In this document: positions 3,641-57,266 of the stretch, piece by piece
Numbering within the stretch: the stretch's first letter is position 1
Layout of the letters: every line of letters starts with the position of its first letter
Program-made: the position numbers and the translations under genes
The notes under the pieces: model-generated
The model's input: the letters and a program-made list of their open reading frames with translations, nothing else
Databases searched by the model: none
Told to the model about the DNA's origin: nothing
Assembly (NCBI RefSeq): GCF_963921235.1
Contig: NC_086108.1
Location: 68,884,001 to 68,948,000 of the forward strand
Direction: 5' to 3'
DNA length: 64,000 nucleotides
Source: Mobula hypostoma
Lineage: Eukaryota

Positions 3641-3936
3641 ATCAAAGAGAACCAATCGTGAGTTGGAGAGCTATGTGAGAGGAGGCGGTGGACAGGTCTG
3701 GGAGCAAAGTGTAAAAGGGGAAAGCCTCGCGGGAACTCAGTTATATCTGGTACACCAATCGTGTGTCGGAGAACAGGGAAGGTTCAGACATAAAAAGAAG
3801 ACACTGCCTAGCAGAGCGGTCATCAAAGGAGTGGCCTGAGTCAGAGTGGTAGGGCTTTGACTTATTCGGGCTTAGGTGAGACAAGTGGGGAAGTGGACTT
3901 CATTTTTTTCCTTGCAATTTTTGAGGACTAGAGAGC

Positions 3937-4948
3937 ATGTCTGCAGGGTTAATGCTTTGCTCTGGGTGTCAGATGTGGGAATCCTGGGAATTTTCCAGTC
4001 TACTAGATGGCCACATCTTCACCAGGTCCACCGAGATGCAGCTCCTGAGAGAGCATGTTAAAGATCTGGAGTTGCAGCTTGACGACCTACAGCTTATTAG
4101 GGAAAGTGAGCAGGAGATAGATAGGAGCTACAGGGAATTAGTCACCCCGAGGCTGCAGGAGTTAGACAAGTGGATAACTGTCAGGGAAGGGAAGGGAAGA
4201 GCTCAGATAGTAGACAGCACCCTGTGGCCAGCCCCCTCAGTAATAGTTATCTCATTTTGGACGCTGTTGGGGGGGAGGGGGTGACTTGAGAGTGGATGAC
4301 CACGCCAATCGGGTCTCCGGTACTGAGCCTGGTTCCATGGTGCAGAAGGGAGAGAAGATGATGAGGAATGACGTAGTCATAGGGGATTCCAAAGTGAGGA
4401 GGACAGACAGGAGGTTCTGTCAGCCTGATAGAGATACCTGCATGGTGTGTTGCCTCCCAGGTGCCAGGGTACAAGATGTCTCAGGTCAGGTGTAGAGCAT
4501 TCTGAAGAGAGAGAGTGTACAGCCAGAAGTCTTGGTACACATTAGTACCAATGACATTGGTAAAAAAAAAAAGGGAAGAGGTCCTAAAGAGAGAATTCAG
4601 GGAGTTGGGTAGGAAGATGAAAAGCAGGACCTCCAGGGTAGTAATCTCATGATTGCTGCCTGTGCTACATGCTAACGAGGCAAGAATAGCATGATCAGGC
4701 ATACTAATGCATGGATGAGAGAATGGTGTAGGGGGCAGGGGTTCAGGTTCCTGGATCATTGGGGCACTTTATGGGGTAGGTACAACCTGTACAAAAAGGA
4801 CAGTTTACACCTGACCTCAAAGAGGTCCAATATCCTAGCAGACAAGTTTAATAGAGCTGTTAGGGAGGGTTTAAATGAATTTGGCAGGCGGATAGGAACA
4901 GGAGTGATAGGGCTGAGGAAGGGGGAAACAGAAATAAATCTAAGATAG
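3937..4948 (+). pseudogene. CR1 ORF1: zinc-finger/leucine-zipper plus SGNH esterase, frameshifted
   Basis: CSGCQMWE, LELQLDDLQLIRESE, VVIGDSKVR (esterase block I), CCLPGARVQDV, HISTNDI and FRFLDHW...DSLHL, spread over several frames. Confidence 0.88.
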
Positions 4949-11410: not shown

Positions 11411-12378
11411 GCAAATTACTCTTTTTGTGTGTCTGTATAAGAACTTATCATTTCTGTCTGTCATTATGATTGCCATTTTTCTTATACTATTTATATAGTT
11501 TGGCAGCTGGGTAAATTCCATAACCCAGCTCACTCACAAAACATTACATGGCCAAAGCAGGTTAATGTGCTCATAACTGCCCCTATTAACCCATTTTGAC
11601 TTGTCCTACAACAGACAGCCTTTATTCTGCAAATCCTTGCCCATCTTCTCTCCTACTTGTTTTTCACTTTCCCAGTTCAGATCCTGAAGCTTTATTTTCT
11701 TCCAAAGATGCTGCCTGATACGCTGAGTGTTTCTCGCATTTTCTGTTTTTATTTCAGATTTCCAGCATCTGCAATTTTTTGTCTTTCTCACAGTCAGAGT
11801 TTCTGTCCCATATCTTGGAACGAACAGATGATATATATGAACTTATTTTACACAATAAATCATGTACACTCTATTTACCACACTGAAAATTTTGGATATG
11901 TCAATAAAAACAGTGCAATCAAAGTTCTGTTCTAAATCTTGGACCATAAGACATAAGAGCAGAATTAGGCCATTCAGCCCATCGAATCTGTACCGCCATT
12001 CCACCATGGCTCATCCTGGATCCCACTCAACCCTACACCTGCCTTCTCGCCATATCTTTTGATGTCCTGACTGATCAGAAAGCGATTAACTTTCACCCTA
12101 AATATACCCATGCACTGCAATCTGCAGCAGAGCATTCCACAGATTCACTACTCTCTGGCTAAAAAAAATTCCTTCTTACCTCTGATGTGGCCGGCTCCCC
12201 CACCGGACTTAGTCTGGTGAGGAGGGTGTGAGGGCACCCAGCAAGACTAAAAAAAACAAGATCTGACAAAAGGCTGATGAGCTCCTTGCGGGCCAACGGC
12301 CATCTTCCATGGAAGAGATTAAAGCCTCAACACGCATCTACGAATCGTATGCTATGCACCTAGTTAGAAGAGATGATG

Positions 12379-12557
12379 TAAACACAAAATAATCTGCAGA
12401 TGCTGAGATCAAAGCAACAGTCACAACACGCTGGAGGAACTCAGCAGGTTGGGCAGCATCCGTGGAAACCATGAGTCGACGTTTTGCACGTCGCCTCATC
12501 GTTTCCACGGATGCTGCCCGACCTGCTGAGTTCCTCCAGCATGTTGTGAGTGTTGCC
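12379..12557. mobile_element. Fold-back Penelope-like terminal-repeat insertion
   Basis: 14-bp TSD TAGAAGAGATGATG (12365-12378 and 12558-12571). Two ~69-bp inverted arms (12414-12482 and 12488-12556) of the GCTGGAGGAACTCAGCAGG repeat. Confidence 0.88.
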
Positions 12558-12580
12558 TAGAAGAGATGATGACTCCGGCA

Positions 12581-12757
12581 CTGCACCATGTGCCTGGACC
12601 TGCCCAAGGCCTCTGCCTAAGGAAGGGCCGAGCTCAAAGAAGCAGCTGCAGCTGGAGGCCGACACAGCCTCGGGCTCAAGTTTGGTGGGGGAGGCGGCAG
12701 GCGGTGCCAAGGCGGCCAGCGAGAACAAACTGGAGGAGAGGCTATACTCGGTGCTGT
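12581..12757 (+). pseudogene. CYHR1: Permuted fragment of the CYHR1/ZFTRAF1 first coding exon
   Basis: 12622-12757 reads EGPSSKKQLQLEA...[12 protein letters not shown] and 12582-12620 reads [12 protein letters not shown]. Vertebrate CYHR1, as I recall it, reads PPKKRLR...[26 protein letters not shown]. GC-rich relative to the surroundings. Confidence 0.82.
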
Positions 12758-13237
12758 CGCAAGATCGAAGAAGATGGAGGTGCATAGCCGCCAACCCCGG
12801 ATTAGGGACAGCACCCACTGACCTCTGTTCTAAAAGGTCGCCCCTTAATTTTGAGGCTGTGCCCTCTAGTTCTGGGTACCCCCACCATAGGAAACATCCT
12901 CTGCACATCCACCCTTTGAACATTCAGATTTCCAAGAGTTCCCTCTGCATTCTTCTAAATTCCAGTGAGTACAGGCCCAAGCTGCCCAATGCCTCTGGAC
13001 TAACCTCTTCATTCCTGGAATCATCCTTGTAAACTGCCTCTGGACTCGCTCCAACGACAACACATTGTTTCCAAGATATGGAGCCCAAAACTGCTGACAA
13101 TACTCCAAATAAAATAATCTTGAACCACCTTTGGTAAGAACCATTTCAAAGGTGCACTGACCTAGCATAAAACCTCACAGTACTACTTGCATATTCAGCT
13201 CAATAATGTTTGCAATTAAGTTTGTTTACAGTAAAAT

Positions 13238-41381: not shown

Positions 41382-41913
41382 CATAATACTGGTACTATGT
41401 ACATATCCAGTACATAATACTGGTACTGTGTTCCAGTATTCAGCAGCCATTAAACAGCATTGTCTCCCTCTCCTCCTTTTATCTGTTCACGGTTCTCACA
41501 CTATAATGGTAAATTCTGGAATGGTATTCTCTCAGAAAAGATTATCTTGTCTTAATAGCTCTACTCATGACTGTCCTAATGTAAACGGGTTGGTTGGTTA
41601 AATTGCTGTTTATCTCCAACTTACTCTAAACTTAGTTTTCAACTTCAATCCTTGAATTTAAAACTCTTCAATATCTCCTCATCACAAATAACATCATTCT
41701 CCCTCACCATCATTTACACACTTTCTCAAATATTTTATTTGCATTCTTATTTTCTTCCCAATTTCATTACATTTCCCTTGATTATACATTCAAGGCATAT
41801 TATATGTGAAATTATGCAGTTGAAATTTAACATTAAACATCCTACTGCAGGATATAACATGAAATAGAAATACGTCACTCTGGCTGTTGACCAATTCCCA
41901 TAGCAATATTCTA

Positions 41914-42536
41914 CGAGGGGTGATTGATAAGTTTATGGCCTAAGGTAAAAGGAGTCAATTTTAGAAAACCTAGCACATTTATTTTCCCTATACTTACACA
42001 CTTAGTCCAGCGGTCATGGAGCATATGGATCCCTTCTTTGTAGAAATCGGCATCTTGGACCTCCAGAAGTGGTCCACAACTGGGGTGATTGATAAGTTTG
42101 TGGCCTCGGGTAGAAGGAGATGAGTTATTAACTTCAAACTTTCTGCATTTTCACTCAGAGAGTTGAACTGCACATGCATGTAACTAGAGCAGTATAACTC
42201 ATCTCCTTCTACCTTAGGCCATGAACTTATCAATCACCCCTGCTGTGGACCACCTGGAGGTCCAGGATGCTCTCATTACATGCACGTGCAGTTCAACTCT
42301 TTGAGTGATAATGCAGAAAGTTTGAAGTTAATAACTCATCTCCTTCTACCTTAGGCCACGAACTTATCAATCACCCCTGCTGTGGACCACTTCTACAAAG
42401 AAGGGATCCGTATGTTCCATGACCACTGGACTAAGTGTGTACATGTAGGAGGGGACTATGTTGAAAAATAAATGTGCTAGGTTTTCTAAAATTGACTCCT
42501 TCTACCTTAGGTCACAAATTTATCAATCACCCCTCG
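41914..42536. mobile_element. Mariner-derived palindromic MITE
   Basis: TA|CGAGGGGTGATTGATAAGTT...AATTTATCAATCACCCCTCG|TA, with long inverted arms and three extra internal TIR copies. Confidence 0.9.
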
Positions 42537-43348
42537 TATTTATTTCTGAATATTTTCTATCCATGGACCAGATTAATATCCAGATGCCTCCTATTTGATG
42601 GAATGTGAACACCATCTTGGCAATAATAAAACATCCATCCAGGAAGAGCTTTGAATTGTTGCCATGTGAATAACTTCATCCATCAGAATTACTGGATAAT
42701 TAGAATCAATGGATTTCTAAGACATCAATGATTCTTCCACTTGTTATGAATCTATAAGTCACTAAGCCAAGAGTCCTTGAACAATACTACTTTACTGCCA
42801 CAGAGTTCATGGCTTGGGGAAGAGGAATTTCCTGTAAATGCAAAACTATCTTCTGAAACAGACACAAAATGCTGGAGGAACTCAGCAGCCAAGGCAGCAT
42901 CTATGGAAAATACAGACGTTTTGGGTAGAGACCCTTCATCAGGACTGGAAATAAAAATAAGAAGTCAAAGTAAGAAAGAAGGGGGAGGGGAGGAAGAACC
43001 ACAAGGTGATGGGTGAAACCGGGAAGGGGATTGGGTGGAGGGTTGAAGTAAAGGGCTGAGGAGTTGATTGGTGAAAGAGATACAGGGCTGGAGAAGGGAG
43101 GGGGGGAAAGAGTCTGATATGAGAGGACAGAAGGCCATGGAAGAAAGAAAAGGGGGAGGAGCACCAGAGGGAGGTAACAGGCAGGTAAGGAGATAAGCTG
43201 ACAGAGGAAAATGGGAATGGGAATGGTGAGGTGGGGGAAGGAGAGGCATTACCGGAAGTTTCCTACCCAGGCAGAGTAGCAGGTGCTGCTCCTCCAACCT
43301 GAGTGTGGCTTCATCGCGACAGTGGAGGAGGCCATGACCTGACATGTC

Positions 43349-44935
43349 AGAATTGCTATTGCAAAGGAAAAAGTGCAAGGCAAACTCAAAGGTGGATAAG
43401 TCACCTGGACCAGATGGGACTACATCCCAGAGACCTGAGAGGGGTTGCTGAAGAGATATTGCATGCATTGGTCATGATCTTTCAAGAATCTCTTGATTCT
43501 GGCATGATCCTGGAGGACTGAAAGATTGCAAATGTTGCTCCACTCTTTAAGAAGGGAGGAAGGCAAAAGAAAGGAATTTACAGACCAGTTAGCCTAACCT
43601 CTGTGGTTGGGGAAGTGTTGGAGTCCATTACTAAGGATGAGATTTTGGGATACGGGGACTAATGAAAACATAAATCAAAGTCAGCACGGTTTCTGTAAAG
43701 GGAACTCTCACCTGACAAAACTGTTGGTTCTTCGAGGAAGTAACAAGCAGGGTGGACAAAGCAGAGGCAGTGGATGTCATTTACTTTGATTTTCAAAAGG
43801 TGTTTGATAAGGTGCCACACATGGCACAGCTTAACAAGATAAAATCCTATGGCATTACAGGAAAGATACTGGAATGGATACAGGAATGGCTGACAGCCAG
43901 GAGACAGCAAGTGGGAATAAAGGGGGCCTTTTCTGGTTGGCTGCCAGTGACTAGTGGTATTCCTCAGGGGTCAGTATTGAGACCACTACTTTTCACGTTG
44001 TTAGTCAATAATTTAGATAGTAGAATTGATGGCTTTGTGGCAAAGTTGCAGATGATACAAAGATATATGGAGGGGTTGGTAGTGCTGAGGAAGCAATGCG
44101 ATTGCAGTAGGACGTAGACAAATTAGAAGAATGGCAAAAAAAGTGGCAGATGGAAAATGTTGGAAAATGTACAATAATGAATTTTGCCTCAACATGAACA
44201 ATAATGTGGACTACTATCTAAATGGGGAGACAGTTCAAACAACAGAGGTGCAGAGGGACTGAGGAGTCCTCATACAAGACTCCCAGAAGGTTAATTTACA
44301 GGTTGAGTCTACAGTTAAGAAGGCAATGTTGGCATTTATTTCAAGGGGAATAGGATATAAAAGTAAGGAGATAATGCTGAGCCTTTATAAGGTGCTAGTC
44401 AGGTCGCACAGAATATTGTGAACAGTTTTGGGTCCCCTATCTCAGAAAGGATGTGTTGTCATTGGAGAGTCCAGAGGAGGTTCACAAGGATTCTGGAAAT
44501 GAAGAGGTTAACATGTGAGGAGCGTTTGGCAGCCTTAAGGCCTGTACTCGCTGGAATTTAGAATAACGCATGGGGATTTCATTGAAAACTACCAAATGTT
44601 GAAAGGACAAGATAGGGTGAATGTGGAGAGGATGTTTCCTATGGTGGATGTATCCAGAACTAGAGGACACAGCCTCAAAATTGAGGGTGATCTTTTAAAA
44701 CAGAGGTAAGAAGGAATTTTTTTAGCCGGACAGTAGTGTATCTGTGAAATGCCTGCCACAGACTGCGGTGAAAGCAAAGTCCGTGGATATATTTAAGGTG
44801 GAAGTTGATAGTTTGCTGATCGGTCAAGGCATCAAAGAATATGGTGAGAAGGTGTATGGGATAGAGTGAAATCCGGGATCAGCCAGAGCAGACTTGATGG
44901 GCTGAATGGGTGAATTCTGCTCCTATGTCTTATGG
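43349..44935 (+). mobile_element. 5'-truncated CR1 nested in the PLE
   Basis: KSPGPDG, YRPVSLTSV, FDFQKVFDKVPH, GIPQGSVL and a TATGTCTTATGG tail. Confidence 0.92.
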
Positions 44936-52082: not shown

Positions 52083-52932
52083 TGTTACATACCTCAAGGA
52101 GATCTTGTGACTTTCTTGTGAGAATGATGTAATGGTCTTTTGGAGGTTACCTGATGTAATTTTCCCGCCGATGTGAAGTCACGTGATGACATGTTCACCA
52201 CGGGTATTAAAGGGAAGATCCCTGGTGACGCAGTTAGTTTTCCGGTTCGAACTTCAATGAGATACTCCGCTCTGCTACATATTTGCATTATAACGCAGTT
52301 TTGATTTTAAACTGAGTTTTATGTTCTAATGTAAGGTACAGAAGTCTGAGCCAGCAGTTTGACAATTGCTGCCAGGTTTGTTAATGTATCTTTTTAGTAA
52401 CATTGGAGAGTGAAGATGGGACCCTGAAGGAGATGTTCGATGGGTTTGGAAAGGATCAACCATTATTAAATTCATTCAAGAAAGTGATCTGCATGAGATA
52501 GCCTCTGCTAAAAGTGGCTGAAAGGCTGTGCAGGATCTATTCTACGGAAGAAGGTCAGTGCCTTTAAAACTGTTTTATTTCCATCGTCGTGAATTCTGTG
52601 GACAAGGCAGGATTCAACTGGGAGCGGCAGCGATGTCGTGTCTTCGAGGAATTTGTTACTTCATGAAAGTCCCTCCTAATTGACTGTATAAATCTTTTGG
52701 ACTTTAAAATTTACCATTCGAAGAACTGTGTTTGAATTTATCGCTTTAAGAACTGGTTTCACATTTATCGCTTTAAGAACTAGTACTGAGTAGTGCTTTA
52801 CTGAATGGCCACATAGCCGTTTACTTCCGGTTAGGGTTTTCGATTTTTGTTCATTGTTTATCAGGGCTTAATAAATGTTTGTTTGTTTATAAATCCTTAT
52901 TCGATATATTCATTGTTGCCAATCACGTGACA
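52083..52932 (+). repeat. 5' LTR (850 bp)
   Basis: TGTTAC...GTGACA; direct repeat of 56444-57266; AATAAA near the 3' end. Confidence 0.95.
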
Positions 52933-53064: not shown

Positions 53065-54250
53065 ATGGATGTTGACGAGTTTATGAAAACGCCAAACCCG
53101 GAAGTTTTAGTGAATGTGAGAAAACCTGAGGTGTCGGATATTGCTAAAAGGTTGAACCTTAAAGGTATTACGAAGGGTACAACTAAGCCCATAACTCAGA
53201 GAAAAATCGCTGAGCATTATGTAAGTTTGGGGGAGTTTGATGAGGAGGTATTAGGGAGGTTTCCAATGAGTACAATAGAACTGCAGTTGCATTTTGAACA
53301 GATAAAGTTTGAGAAATTTAAAGCGGAAATAGCTGAAAGAGGCAATTAAAATAAGGGAATTTCAAGAAAGAGAAGCTGAAAACCTGAGGAAATTTGAGCT
53401 GGAGATGGAGAAATTAAACATGGAAAATCGATCTTCTGGTTCTAGGAAACAGTTTGTAGCAAGTCATGAGGTTGTTCTGGCTCTTCCTTTTAATGAGACA
53501 GAAGTGAATAAATATTTCCAGCATTTGGAAACTATTGCTCTGAGTTTAGAGTGGCCAAAAGAGAAATGGCCAGTGATGTTACAAAGTGTAATTAGAGGAA
53601 AGGCACAACAAGTTTATACTGCTTTAAATGCTGAGCAAGCACTTGATTATGATATTGTGAAACAGCATATATTAAAGGTGTATGAGCTAGTTCCAGAAGA
53701 GTATAGAGAAAGATTCAGAAATTTGAAGAAACCAGTGGAAAAAACGTATGTGGAATTTGCCTACGAGAAATGTGTGTATTTTGAGAGATGGGTTTCCTCT
53801 AAAAATGTGAATGGGGAGTATAATAAATTAAAAGTGTTGATTTTGCAAGAGGAATTTAAAAGAAGCATTCCTGTTGAAGTGAAGACATATTTAAATGAAA
53901 GGGACACTGCTACATTGAAGGAGATTGCTAAATTTGCTGATAAGTATACTTTAATTCATAAGAGTAAATTTTCTCCAGGTAGAACCTTTAAGAGGAAAAA
54001 GAGCACAGAGAGTCAAAGTGAACCAGAAATTAAATCTGATATTAGTGAGAAAGGTAAGGATAAAGGGAGACATGTGAAGGAAAGACATTTAGGTATTATT
54101 TGTAATTATTGTAAGAAACCTGGTCACGTAATAGCTAACTGTTTTCGATTGAACAAGAAAGAGAAGGAAGCAGTCCCAGATGTTTGTGTGCAACATATTG
54201 AAAACCCTGTAAAGCCACAGGGTTCGGAAATACAAATGAGGTTTTGTTAA
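53065..54250 (+). pseudogene. gag (SCAN-related capsid region + CCHC zinc knuckle), disrupted
   Basis: YELVPEEYRERFRN, LILQEEFKRSIP and CNYCKKPGHVIANC. Break near 53349. Confidence 0.87.
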
Positions 54251-54307
54251 GAGTCTGACCAAGTTAAGAGGGGATATGAACATTTTATAACTGAAGGATT
54301 CGTATCC

Positions 54308-56238
54308 TTGAAAGAGGGATCTACTCCTGTACCAATAAAAATACTTGGAGATACTGGAGCTTCTCAATCACTAATATTAGACAGTGTGCTAAAGTTTAGT
54401 GATGTGTCTGACATTAGTGAAGTAAATTATATAAGAGGAGTTGGGAGTGCCCTTATGCCGGTACATTTACATAGAGTTAAATTAAGGTCAGGGTTAGCTA
54501 CAGGGCCAGTTAAAGTAGGACTACAACCCAGTTTACCTGTGAATGATGTTGCTCTGTTGTTAGGGAATGACTTAACTAATGGACAAGTTTTTCCTGATGT
54601 ACATTTGACAATAAAGCCTATTTCTGAGGAACCACAGAGCAATTCTAACACGGATACTTCCTGTGTTGTAACCAGAGCTATGGCTAAGAAGACTGATGTA
54701 CAGGATGAGGTTGTTAACCATGACAGTTCAACTTGGGATGCAAATTTTGAGGATGTGTCAGAAATTTTCTTACCTTCATTATATGATCAAGGTTCTTATG
54801 GTAAGTCTGACCATGAAGATTTCTCTTTATCTCAGAAGGAGATTATAGCAGAGCAGGGTAGAGATCCTGAGATAGTTAAATTAAAGGAACAAGCTCTTCC
54901 AGATAGTGAAATTGAGAAGGTGCCAGTAGGATATTATTTTGAAAAGGGAGTACTAATGAGGAAGTGGAGATCACCTACAATTCCTGCAAGTGAAGAATAG
55001 GAAGTTAATCACCAGGTAGTAGTTCTTAAAGTTTATCAAAATGAGATTTTAACTATGGCTCATAGTGTTCCTTTGGGTGGCCATTTAGGGGTAAAGAAAA
55101 GTATGAACAAGGTTTCTAAACATCTTTACTGGCCTAGTTTAAGAAAAGATGTAGTGACATTTTGTCGAACTGTCATACGTGTCAGATTGCGGGTAAACCT
55201 CATCAGGTTACTCCAATGGCCCCACTGCAACCAATTCCAGCATTTGGTGAGCCGTTCTCAAAAATCATTGTAGACTGTGTCGGTCCTTTGCCAAAAACTA
55301 AAACCGGACATCAATATTTATTAACTATTATGTGCACAGCGTCTAGGTTTCCAGAGGCAATACCTCTTAGGAATATAACAGCCAAAACTGTGACAAAGGC
55401 TCTTATAAAATTATTTACTTTTTTTGGGTTGCCTAAGGAAGTACAATCGGATCAAGGTAGTAATTTTATGTCTGGATTGTTTCAGCAGATAGTTTATAAA
55501 CTGGGAGCAAAACAGATTACTTCATCTGCATATCATCCAGAATCACAAGGAACCCTGGAGAGATTTCATTCTACCTTTAAAAATATGATTAGGACGTACT
55601 GTGTGGAAAATGAAAAGGATTGGAATGAAGGCGTACATTTACTTCTTTTTGCAGTACGAGAGGCAGTGCAGGAATCATTAGGTTTTACTCCTTTTGAACT
55701 TGTGTTTGGGCATAGAGTTCGAGGACCTTTGGCCTTGTTGAAGGAACAGTGGATTAATAAAGAGGTACACACTAATTTGCTGGATTATGTTTTAAAATTT
55801 AAAGAAAGATTACATAAAGCTTGTAGCTTGACCAAAGAAAATTTAAAATCAGCTCAAGAAAAGATGAAGACTTGGAATGATAAGGAAGCTAGGATGAGGT
55901 CACTTAAGCCTGGAGATAAAGTGTTGGTTCTTTTTCCAGTGCAAACAAACCCATTACAAGCTAAATTTCATGGTCCTTATGAGATTAAATCTAAAGTAAA
56001 TGATGTGGATTACGTGATAAAAACACCAGATCTAAGAAAGCCAACATAGCTGTGTCATATAAATGTGATAAAACCGTATTATGAGAAACAAAATGCTACT
56101 ATGACTGTTAAGGAAAAGGGTTAAGGAAATCAAACTCCAATTTAGTAACACAGTTTAATGTTACAGGAGTACAATATTTTGATCACTCATATTAAAGGTA
56201 AAGATAATGTGATTGCTGATTGTCTATCTAGATGTTAA
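54308..56238 (+). pseudogene. pol remnant: protease, integrase, RNase H C-terminal stub
   Basis: ILGDTGASQS...LLGND (protease); AH..GGHLG..CHTC, DCVGP, SDQGSNF, ERFH and GPY (integrase); LQEYNILITHIKGKDNVIADCLSR* (RNase H end). Confidence 0.88.
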
Positions 56239-56443: not shown

Positions 56444-57266
56444 GGTTACATACCTCAAGGAGATCTTGTAACTTTCTTGTGAGAATGATGTAATGGTCTT
56501 TTGGAGGTCACCTGATGTAATTTTCCCGCCGATGTGAGGTCACGTGATGACATGTTCACCACGAATATTAAAGGGAAGATCCCTGGTGACGCAGTTAGTT
56601 TTCCAGTTAGAACTTCAATGAGAAACTCCGCTCCGCTGCGTATTTGCATTAAGACTCAGTTCTGATTTTAAACTGAGTTTTATGTTCTAATGTAAGGTAC
56701 AGAAGTCTGAGCCAGCAGCTTGACAATTGCTGCCAGTTTTGTTAATGATCTTTTCAGTAACATTGGAGAGTGAAGATGGGACCCTGAAGGAGACGTTCGA
56801 TGGGTTTGGAAAGGATCGACCATTCTTGAATTCATTCAAGAAAGTGATCTGCATGAGATAGCCTCTGCTAAAAGTGGCTGAAAGGCTGTGCAGGATCTAT
56901 TCTATGGAGGAAGGTCAGTGCCTTTAAAACTGTTTTATTTCCATCGTCGTGAATTCTGTGGACAAGGCAGGATCTGACTGGGAGTGGCAGTGACGTCGTG
57001 TCTTCAAGGAATTCGTTATTTCATGAAAATCTCTCTTAATTGACTGTATAAATCTCTTGGACTTTAAAATTTACCATTCGAAGAACTGTGTTTGAATTTA
57101 TCGCTTTAAGAACTAGTACTGAGTAGCGGTTTACTGAATGGCCACATAGCCGTTTACTTCCAGTTAGGGTTTTCATTTTTTTTTTCATTGTTTATCAGGG
57201 TTTAATAAATGTTTGTTTGTTTATAAATCCTGACTCGATATATTCATTGTTGCCGATCACGTGGCA
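56444..57266 (+). repeat. 3' LTR (823 bp)
   Basis: GGTTAC...GTGGCA (first base changed from T); direct repeat of the 5' LTR. Confidence 0.95.

Follow-up and report, generated by a model that had tools for sequence, protein, structure and literature searches.

The window, by which we mean the whole 64,000-nucleotide stretch of Mobula hypostoma DNA that was analysed (G000:C50:68884001-68948000), carries at 12580-12757 a segment whose source is exon 1 of ZFTRAF1/CYHR1, with a block B of 40 nt followed by a block A of 138 nt. In the host gene the order is A-B, whereas in the element it is B-A, and the segment is therefore non-collinear sequence from one gene. It sits inside a retroposon copy inserted into a LINE fragment that we take to be CR1-like, and the parts of the locus are given in Table 1. 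Mapped on the reference copy near 44700-44935, the two halves of the interrupted LINE share about 10 nt. The window copy of the retroposon is 5'-truncated and without the family head, and its LINE-derived 5' part is itself interrupted by a palindromic repeat flanked by a 14-nt duplication (12365-12378 and 12558-12571). This repeat is private to the window copy, being absent from the other 29 loci compared, and relatives of it were seen in the window at about 11696, 42857, 46884 and 58578. Elsewhere in the window, nested inverted repeats with arms of 59-127 nt at 90-95% were found at 41912-42538. Direct repeats of ~600 nt with 94% identity, at 52084-52687 and 56445-57047 and 4.36 kb apart, enclose long ORFs at 53333-56049, and together these are possibly an LTR element.

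Table 1. Parts of the window copy and its insertion site (positions in the window).
Feature	Position	Strand	Basis
Host LINE fragment left of insertion	11944..12184	-	73% match to copy near window 44700-44935
Left copy of 7-nt target-site duplication	12178..12184	+	same 7-mer at 12178 and 12821
5' part of RTE-type parent LINE	12185..12378	+	family match from 12189; aligns with 5' end of parents L075/L076
Secondary palindromic repeat, inserted	12379..12557	.	inverted arms 12409-12482/12488-12561 (74-nt)
Last bases of RTE-derived 5' part, blunt joint to B	12572..12579	+	parent and element diverge at first base of B
Block B, 40 nt of ZFTRAF1/CYHR1 exon 1, stopping 4 nt before donor	12580..12619	+	gene alignment
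Block A, 138 nt preceding B in exon 1	12620..12757	+	gene alignment and protein matches
3' end of RTE-type parent (ORF end and short 3' UTR), blunt joint to A	12758..12820	+	27/30 pattern loci with LINE ORF upstream of tail
Host LINE fragment right of insertion	12818..13105	-	76% match to same reference copy; contiguous with left part
Right copy of target-site duplication	12821..12827	+	same 7-mer as left copy

An earlier note, made from the letters of the window, had assigned two swapped blocks to CYHR1 and had placed an exon boundary after VYQ. Both blocks were present with the translations it gave, and their origin in exon 1 was confirmed by the protein matches of block A together with alignment to the host gene. 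These matches were to ZFTRAF1/CYHR1 of cartilaginous fishes only (4 of 122 candidates, best E 4.6e-6, 63% identity), and searching the 3.48-Gb genome with the best of them located the host gene on G000:C5. Its exon 1 lies in locus L034 and is closed, as the note had it, by a GT donor after the VYQ codons; exon 2 is ~91 kb off, so that intron 1 is ~91 kb long. The gene is close to the ZFTRAF1 proteins of rays and sharks, as fits a cartilaginous fish and probably a ray. Alignment to the gene kept the blocks and shifted their proposed limits to those in Table 1. With B beginning at 12580, the last base of A and the first base of B are contiguous in the gene with 0 gap and 0 overlap, which replaces the earlier estimate of about 1 nt, and the insert is one exact turn of the exon segment as had been supposed. 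The majority sequence, built from 37 copies (L001, L023 and two duplicate loci were left out), showed the same cyclic AB-to-BA order against the gene, with full coverage and no overlap. Set against the gene with its blocks swapped, it showed 4 differences in 178 positions, one of which was split 19 to 18 among the 37 copies, and the insert and the carrier LINE were in the same sense. The permutation of the exon-1 blocks is real.

The window element belongs to an amplified non-autonomous retroposon family, and the site is one 5'-truncated copy of it. The family flanks and RTE-type LINE ends bore out the earlier assignment of the carrier to a retroelement. A one-off capture at this site is ruled out because the insert is common to the whole large family, of which the window copy, unremarked as such in the earlier note, is an ordinary member. 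The element is ~570 nt long and consists of a foreign head of ~105 nt, ~215 nt of a LINE 5' part, the 178-nt insert and the last ~75 nt of the LINE, its tail ending in a 4-nt tandem repeat. A search with a 188-nt query gave 929 first-look candidates; all 40 that were scored aligned with it almost from end to end, and, the window copy apart, the remaining 39 did so at 91-93% identity. The same flanks were observed in 30 examined loci, L023 and L025 having them only in part. The insert is a fixed part of the family, and among the scored protein matches no element-type copy read from A on into B, which speaks against other element copies as a DNA-level source of the order. The permuted joint, counted across the genome with a pattern that allowed 0-4 extra bases, gave 475 exact matches, and the left-joint motif gave 452. 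Given that 32 of 44 aligned copies match the joint motif, the copy number was estimated at ~650 or more, which is probably too low. The copies stand 4.7% from their majority sequence and 2.1% outside CpG, as measured on 37 copies biased toward the best-scoring ones.

The copies are dispersed, with staggered 5' truncation, target-site duplications and no enzyme ORF, and a duplication of 7-13 nt was found at both ends in ~17 of 37 copies by a crude search judged by eye. The element had a single origin, and target-primed retrotransposition then multiplied it to hundreds of copies. Since the window copy is ordinary and the insert is fixed in the family, the capture happened once, in the founder. 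We infer that RTE proteins mobilise the element through the shared 3' tail. An older subfamily with a gene-like joint was rejected, as 0 of 44 copies exceed two of four gene-like diagnostic bases and these states are not co-inherited. An 85-codon ORF was seen in family copies such as L041 (the frame lies at 12550-13032 in the window); it has its ATG in the RTE 5' part, passes through B off frame, reads A in the native ZFTRAF1 frame and includes the LINE C-terminal codons in frame. A frame of at least 78 codons with the A motif was kept in 16 of 34 copies examined. Two further copies, L078 and L079 (G000:C12, ~100 kb apart on opposite strands), share one deletion where B begins and show equal identities, and are probably a segmental inverted duplication.

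The parent LINE was located via the tail, which gave 160 matches, with LINE sequence upstream in 27 of 30 examined. Two parent copies of ~3.2 kb (L075 and L076) contain a long endonuclease and reverse transcriptase frame broken by mutations, with a YADD motif and Pfam endonuclease domains. This length, the presence of both enzymes in one reading unit and the short tandem tail are RTE-type features, and the parent fits the RTE clade by these features, not by a tree. The element has its 5' and 3' ends in common with this autonomous-type LINE of the same genome, and the majority sequences of the two tails are identical. The tail divergence was 0.071 for the parent and 0.072 for the element, and from this likeness both are taken to have spread in the same period. 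At the parent 5' end, a ribozyme search gave no Rfam match near the gathering score. The parent copy L074 has an inverted 5' segment (oriented 3677-4191) and the 5' part of the element copy L023 also appears inverted, the two suggesting twin-priming-like insertion in this RTE family.

The head of ~105 nt was defined in L020 (reverse strand, ~1203-1310) and other full-length copies. It is GC- and CpG-rich and has a sharp 5' end, which resembles a polymerase II start site. It was absent from 13 of 13 full-length parent matches; being foreign to the parent, it indicates that the founder lineage joined foreign sequence more than once, and the head is a probable second capture or 5' transduction. 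ARAGORN found no tRNA in the head in any of three near-full-length copies, which sets aside a tRNA-derived SINE, a decayed tRNA being able to escape this search. The best outlier as a source of the head proved to be another element copy. No CpG-island-like upstream flank was visible by eye among 70 matches to the first 20 nt of the head, and an exact pattern for the head end running into other sequence gave 0 matches.

The left joint is blunt: the match between element and parent breaks off precisely where B begins. The right joint is likewise blunt, the last base of A meeting the parent tail; here a G expected from both gene and parent is absent from the element. At the middle joint, the end of B is 4 nt short of the donor, and A opens on AG. 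The earlier note had placed this joint at the 3' end of exon 1, with B ending in AG. The joint does adjoin the true donor, but B stops short of it with two bases absent, and the AG is the exon end only if these two bases are assumed to be lost; otherwise it opens A. As a 180-nt donor-to-AG join, the joint requires the loss of two bases and has 3 nt of microhomology, as against 0 nt for the 178 form. The exact donor-to-acceptor joint is absent, the two bases being missing in all matching copies. They were kept in none of the 44 aligned copies, and exact matching for a joint with 1-4 extra bases, which decayed copies would escape, gave 1 genomic match, whose extra bases were not the missing pair. 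This two-base gap is the only fixed indel in the 178 nt. When circles of 150-250 nt were simulated, B ended 0-4 nt before the donor in 505 of 55,752 (0.9%; 1.4-1.8% on narrower ranges), and 86 of these 505 (17%) were within a 2-nt deletion of some AG-to-donor joint, so that agreement with an AG is cheap.

The turn opens exactly midway in a hairpin whose 6-bp stem is perfect and whose loop has 6 nt. A centred 6-bp stem was unique to that bond among 178, and was found at 6 of 178 when loop size and a 1-nt shift were relaxed; the hairpin was noticed post hoc. Folding predicted 24-30 base pairs between A and B. The probability of the opening bond being unpaired was 0.81-0.99 in linear folds and 0.20-0.67 in circular folds, and a pair of the inner stem had a probability of 0.15-0.89 depending on context. 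The loop was less stable in some of the longer contexts as well. The fragment folded modestly better than its shuffles (z -1.9). The hairpin-centred opening moderately favours a single-stranded template, whether ring or linear RNA.

The earlier proposal for the capture was a back-spliced circular RNA. In that event the exon-1 donor would have joined a cryptic AG to give a 180-nt circRNA, which would have been nicked once and copied into an RTE transcript, and the founder would have lost two bases before amplification. Proximity to the donor speaks for the proposal, while the joint is not an exact donor-to-acceptor one and the implied acceptor is weak. A ring with one nick would be the simplest way to an exact turn, and restoring the two bases makes the joint exactly donor-to-AG. 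The restored ring has 60 codons, in phase and stop-free, the phase match having a 1-in-3 chance, and a near-donor end plus an AG occurred jointly in only 86 of the 55,752 simulated circles. The founder lineage had also lost 7 and 10 nt elsewhere, within the RTE 5' part, so that small losses would have precedent there. Upstream of the implied acceptor lies a branch-point-like motif, and the long intron 1 is in keeping with this account. Against it, the two bases are found in no exact genomic match and in no aligned copy, and the lone fixed indel of the 178 nt would have had to hit the joint exactly. The implied acceptor has G at -3, a pyrimidine fraction of 0.53 and another AG just upstream, coming 9th when the 32 AGs are ordered by pyrimidine content, whereas the best AG of the stretch, skipped 24 nt upstream of the start of A in L034, has C at -3 and a fraction of 0.76, which is also that of the real exon-2 acceptor. 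Back-splicing at this best AG would yield a 204-nt exon-1 circle. In addition, comparison of the 345 nt upstream with the first 1.5 kb of intron 1 gave no convincing inverted repeat (best E 0.22). Six probable RNA runs from two organisms contain the gene stretch; runs X15-X20, which contain 5% of its words, were left out. We regard the back-spliced circle as possible but doubtful.

At the DNA level, a 178-bp microcircle from the CpG-island first exon, opened once, may have served as filler in a break that deleted the 2.9-kb RTE middle. Its size would be near that of one nucleosome, and the exon-1 segment has a GC content of 71% and a CpG o/e of 0.91; a high GC content and an excess of 5' UTRs, exons and CpG islands are described for microDNA (PMC11660679). 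The AB-to-BA order is the signature reported for germline circle insertion (bioRxiv 10.64898/2026.09.03.749254), and the blunt 178-bp joint would need no later deletion. However, the donor-adjacent end would be a 1-2% coincidence and the sense orientation a 50% one, and an opening at a hairpin centre is unexplained in relaxed double-stranded DNA. No joint of the 178 form has microhomology, which the same preprint reports for 23 of 82 insertions. An empty ancestor was absent as well, with 0 matches for the 5' part joined to the tail within 5-35 nt; of 5 off-pattern left joints, the 4 examined were ordinary copies with small deletions and the fifth adjoins a block-A match. The microcircle is judged unlikely. 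Had the gene or an older retrocopy once contained a tandem duplication (A-B-A-B), the B-A joint would need no ring; the earlier note had named tandem duplication as an alternative. The segment, however, occurs once in L034 and is not duplicated in 3.3 kb around exon 1. Among 102 protein matches scored out of 1234 candidates, the exon-1 locus was the only one to run A through B, and 98 element-type matches stopped at residue 112-113. The exact single turn would also be left unexplained, and with a single segment and a lone A-through-B locus we consider a tandem duplication very improbable as the source of the order.

The reading that we tentatively prefer, while giving it less than even odds, is that a folded fragment of exon 1, nicked in its loop, was captured at the RNA level with a non-spliceosomal B-to-A join. 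Capture at the RNA level in total, by such a join or by a back-spliced circle, we hold to be likely; these gradings are judgements and not computed posteriors. The template would have been a strongly folded exon-1 fragment with its 3' end at or just short of the exon-1 donor. A single cut in the hairpin loop would fix the zero-gap, zero-overlap opening and supply both free ends required for end-to-end joining, while the halves would remain base-paired. The pieces would then be joined end to end, either through jumps of the reverse transcriptase from one template to the next or through ligation of the RNAs ahead of reverse transcription; A would thereby be linked to the RTE 3' end, the end of B to the start of A, and the RTE 5' part to the start of B. 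There are reported precedents in LINE chimeras formed by double template switching (PMC2104539) and in RtcB ligation ahead of retrotransposition (PMC6789731), and copying across an open-ended structured RNA has been named as an alternative to a circRNA origin (PMC4897178).

A non-spliceosomal join would explain why the B-to-A joint lies near and not at the donor and why the better acceptor was ignored, and the rarity of a near-donor B end among simulated circles points to an exon-limited RNA. RNA capture agrees with the insert being in the LINE sense, with all three joints being blunt, and with the family pattern of common flanks, tandem tail, staggered 5' truncation and duplications. The opening at the centre of the sole centred 6-bp hairpin and the predicted A-to-B pairing would favour it too, and the foreign head may represent another joining event in the founder lineage. 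On the other side, two or three RNA pieces have to be brought together by three joints, and an intermediate of that kind was not observed; the folding only modestly beats shuffles, and the loop is predicted to be less open in circular folds. For the non-spliceosomal join in particular, the AG at the start of A must be chance (17%). Template jumping of the R2 type is described as requiring non-templated additions (PMC8857657), and none are visible at the joints. By sequence alone, a ligated ring is indistinguishable from jumps across a linear molecule.

No paper describing the element was found in the open-access literature, and several known systems resemble it in part. The circRNA-derived pseudogenes described by Dong et al. 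2016 (PMC4897178) share the reversed host exon order across one joint, the lack of poly(A), several genomic copies and the retroelement association. They have an exon-exon back-splice joint between annotated exons and variable length, whereas here the joint lies within one first exon, is 2 nt off and belongs to a fixed one-turn family module; since its joint is not exact, the window insert, though alike, is not classed with them. The mechanism by which such pseudogenes form is called mysterious in that account (PMC4897178). Bipartite ORF-less non-autonomous LINEs of the RTE clade, among them Bov-A, RTESINE and WALLSI3 (Kojima 2018, PMC5786205), share a 5' part joined to the extreme 3' end, a microsatellite tail and an added foreign head. 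In contrast to these as described there, the deleted middle is here replaced by a rotated host exon and the head is not a tRNA. The element is a bipartite non-autonomous RTE derivative, the clade name being taken from the features of the parent.

Blunt fusion of a cellular RNA to a LINE, with more than one joint and target-site duplications, is described for U6/L1 (PMC6789731) and for tripartite Magnaporthe chimeras (PMC2104539). Those chimeras, as reported, keep the RNAs collinear and mostly 5' of the LINE part, while the host piece of the present element lies internally, is rotated and has multiplied along with a whole family. Germline insertions of eccDNA (bioRxiv 10.64898/2026.09.03.749254) likewise carry their blocks in cyclic order, the whole source being covered and nothing overlapping. 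They are reported from humans as single events, of which 80 of 82 lie on the chromosome of origin, often with microhomology; the present piece differs in lying within a retroelement, in its blunt joints and in the splice donor next to one of its ends.

One genome contains the source exon together with the parent LINE and hundreds of element copies, and all three joints are therefore known to the base. Reads derived from the family would imitate a ZFTRAF1 back-splice to within 2 nt, which calls for caution; three fixed substitutions also set such reads apart from those of the gene. A stop-free 180-nt first-exon circRNA, opened at the hairpin loop and copied for one turn by the RTE reverse transcriptase, could have become the body of the retroposon family; we think this doubtful, and if it were true, a new mobile element would have been built from a circular RNA, and the family would be a fossil that records the position of the nick to the exact base. 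As the family shows, a rotated host exon can form the middle of a short retroposon.
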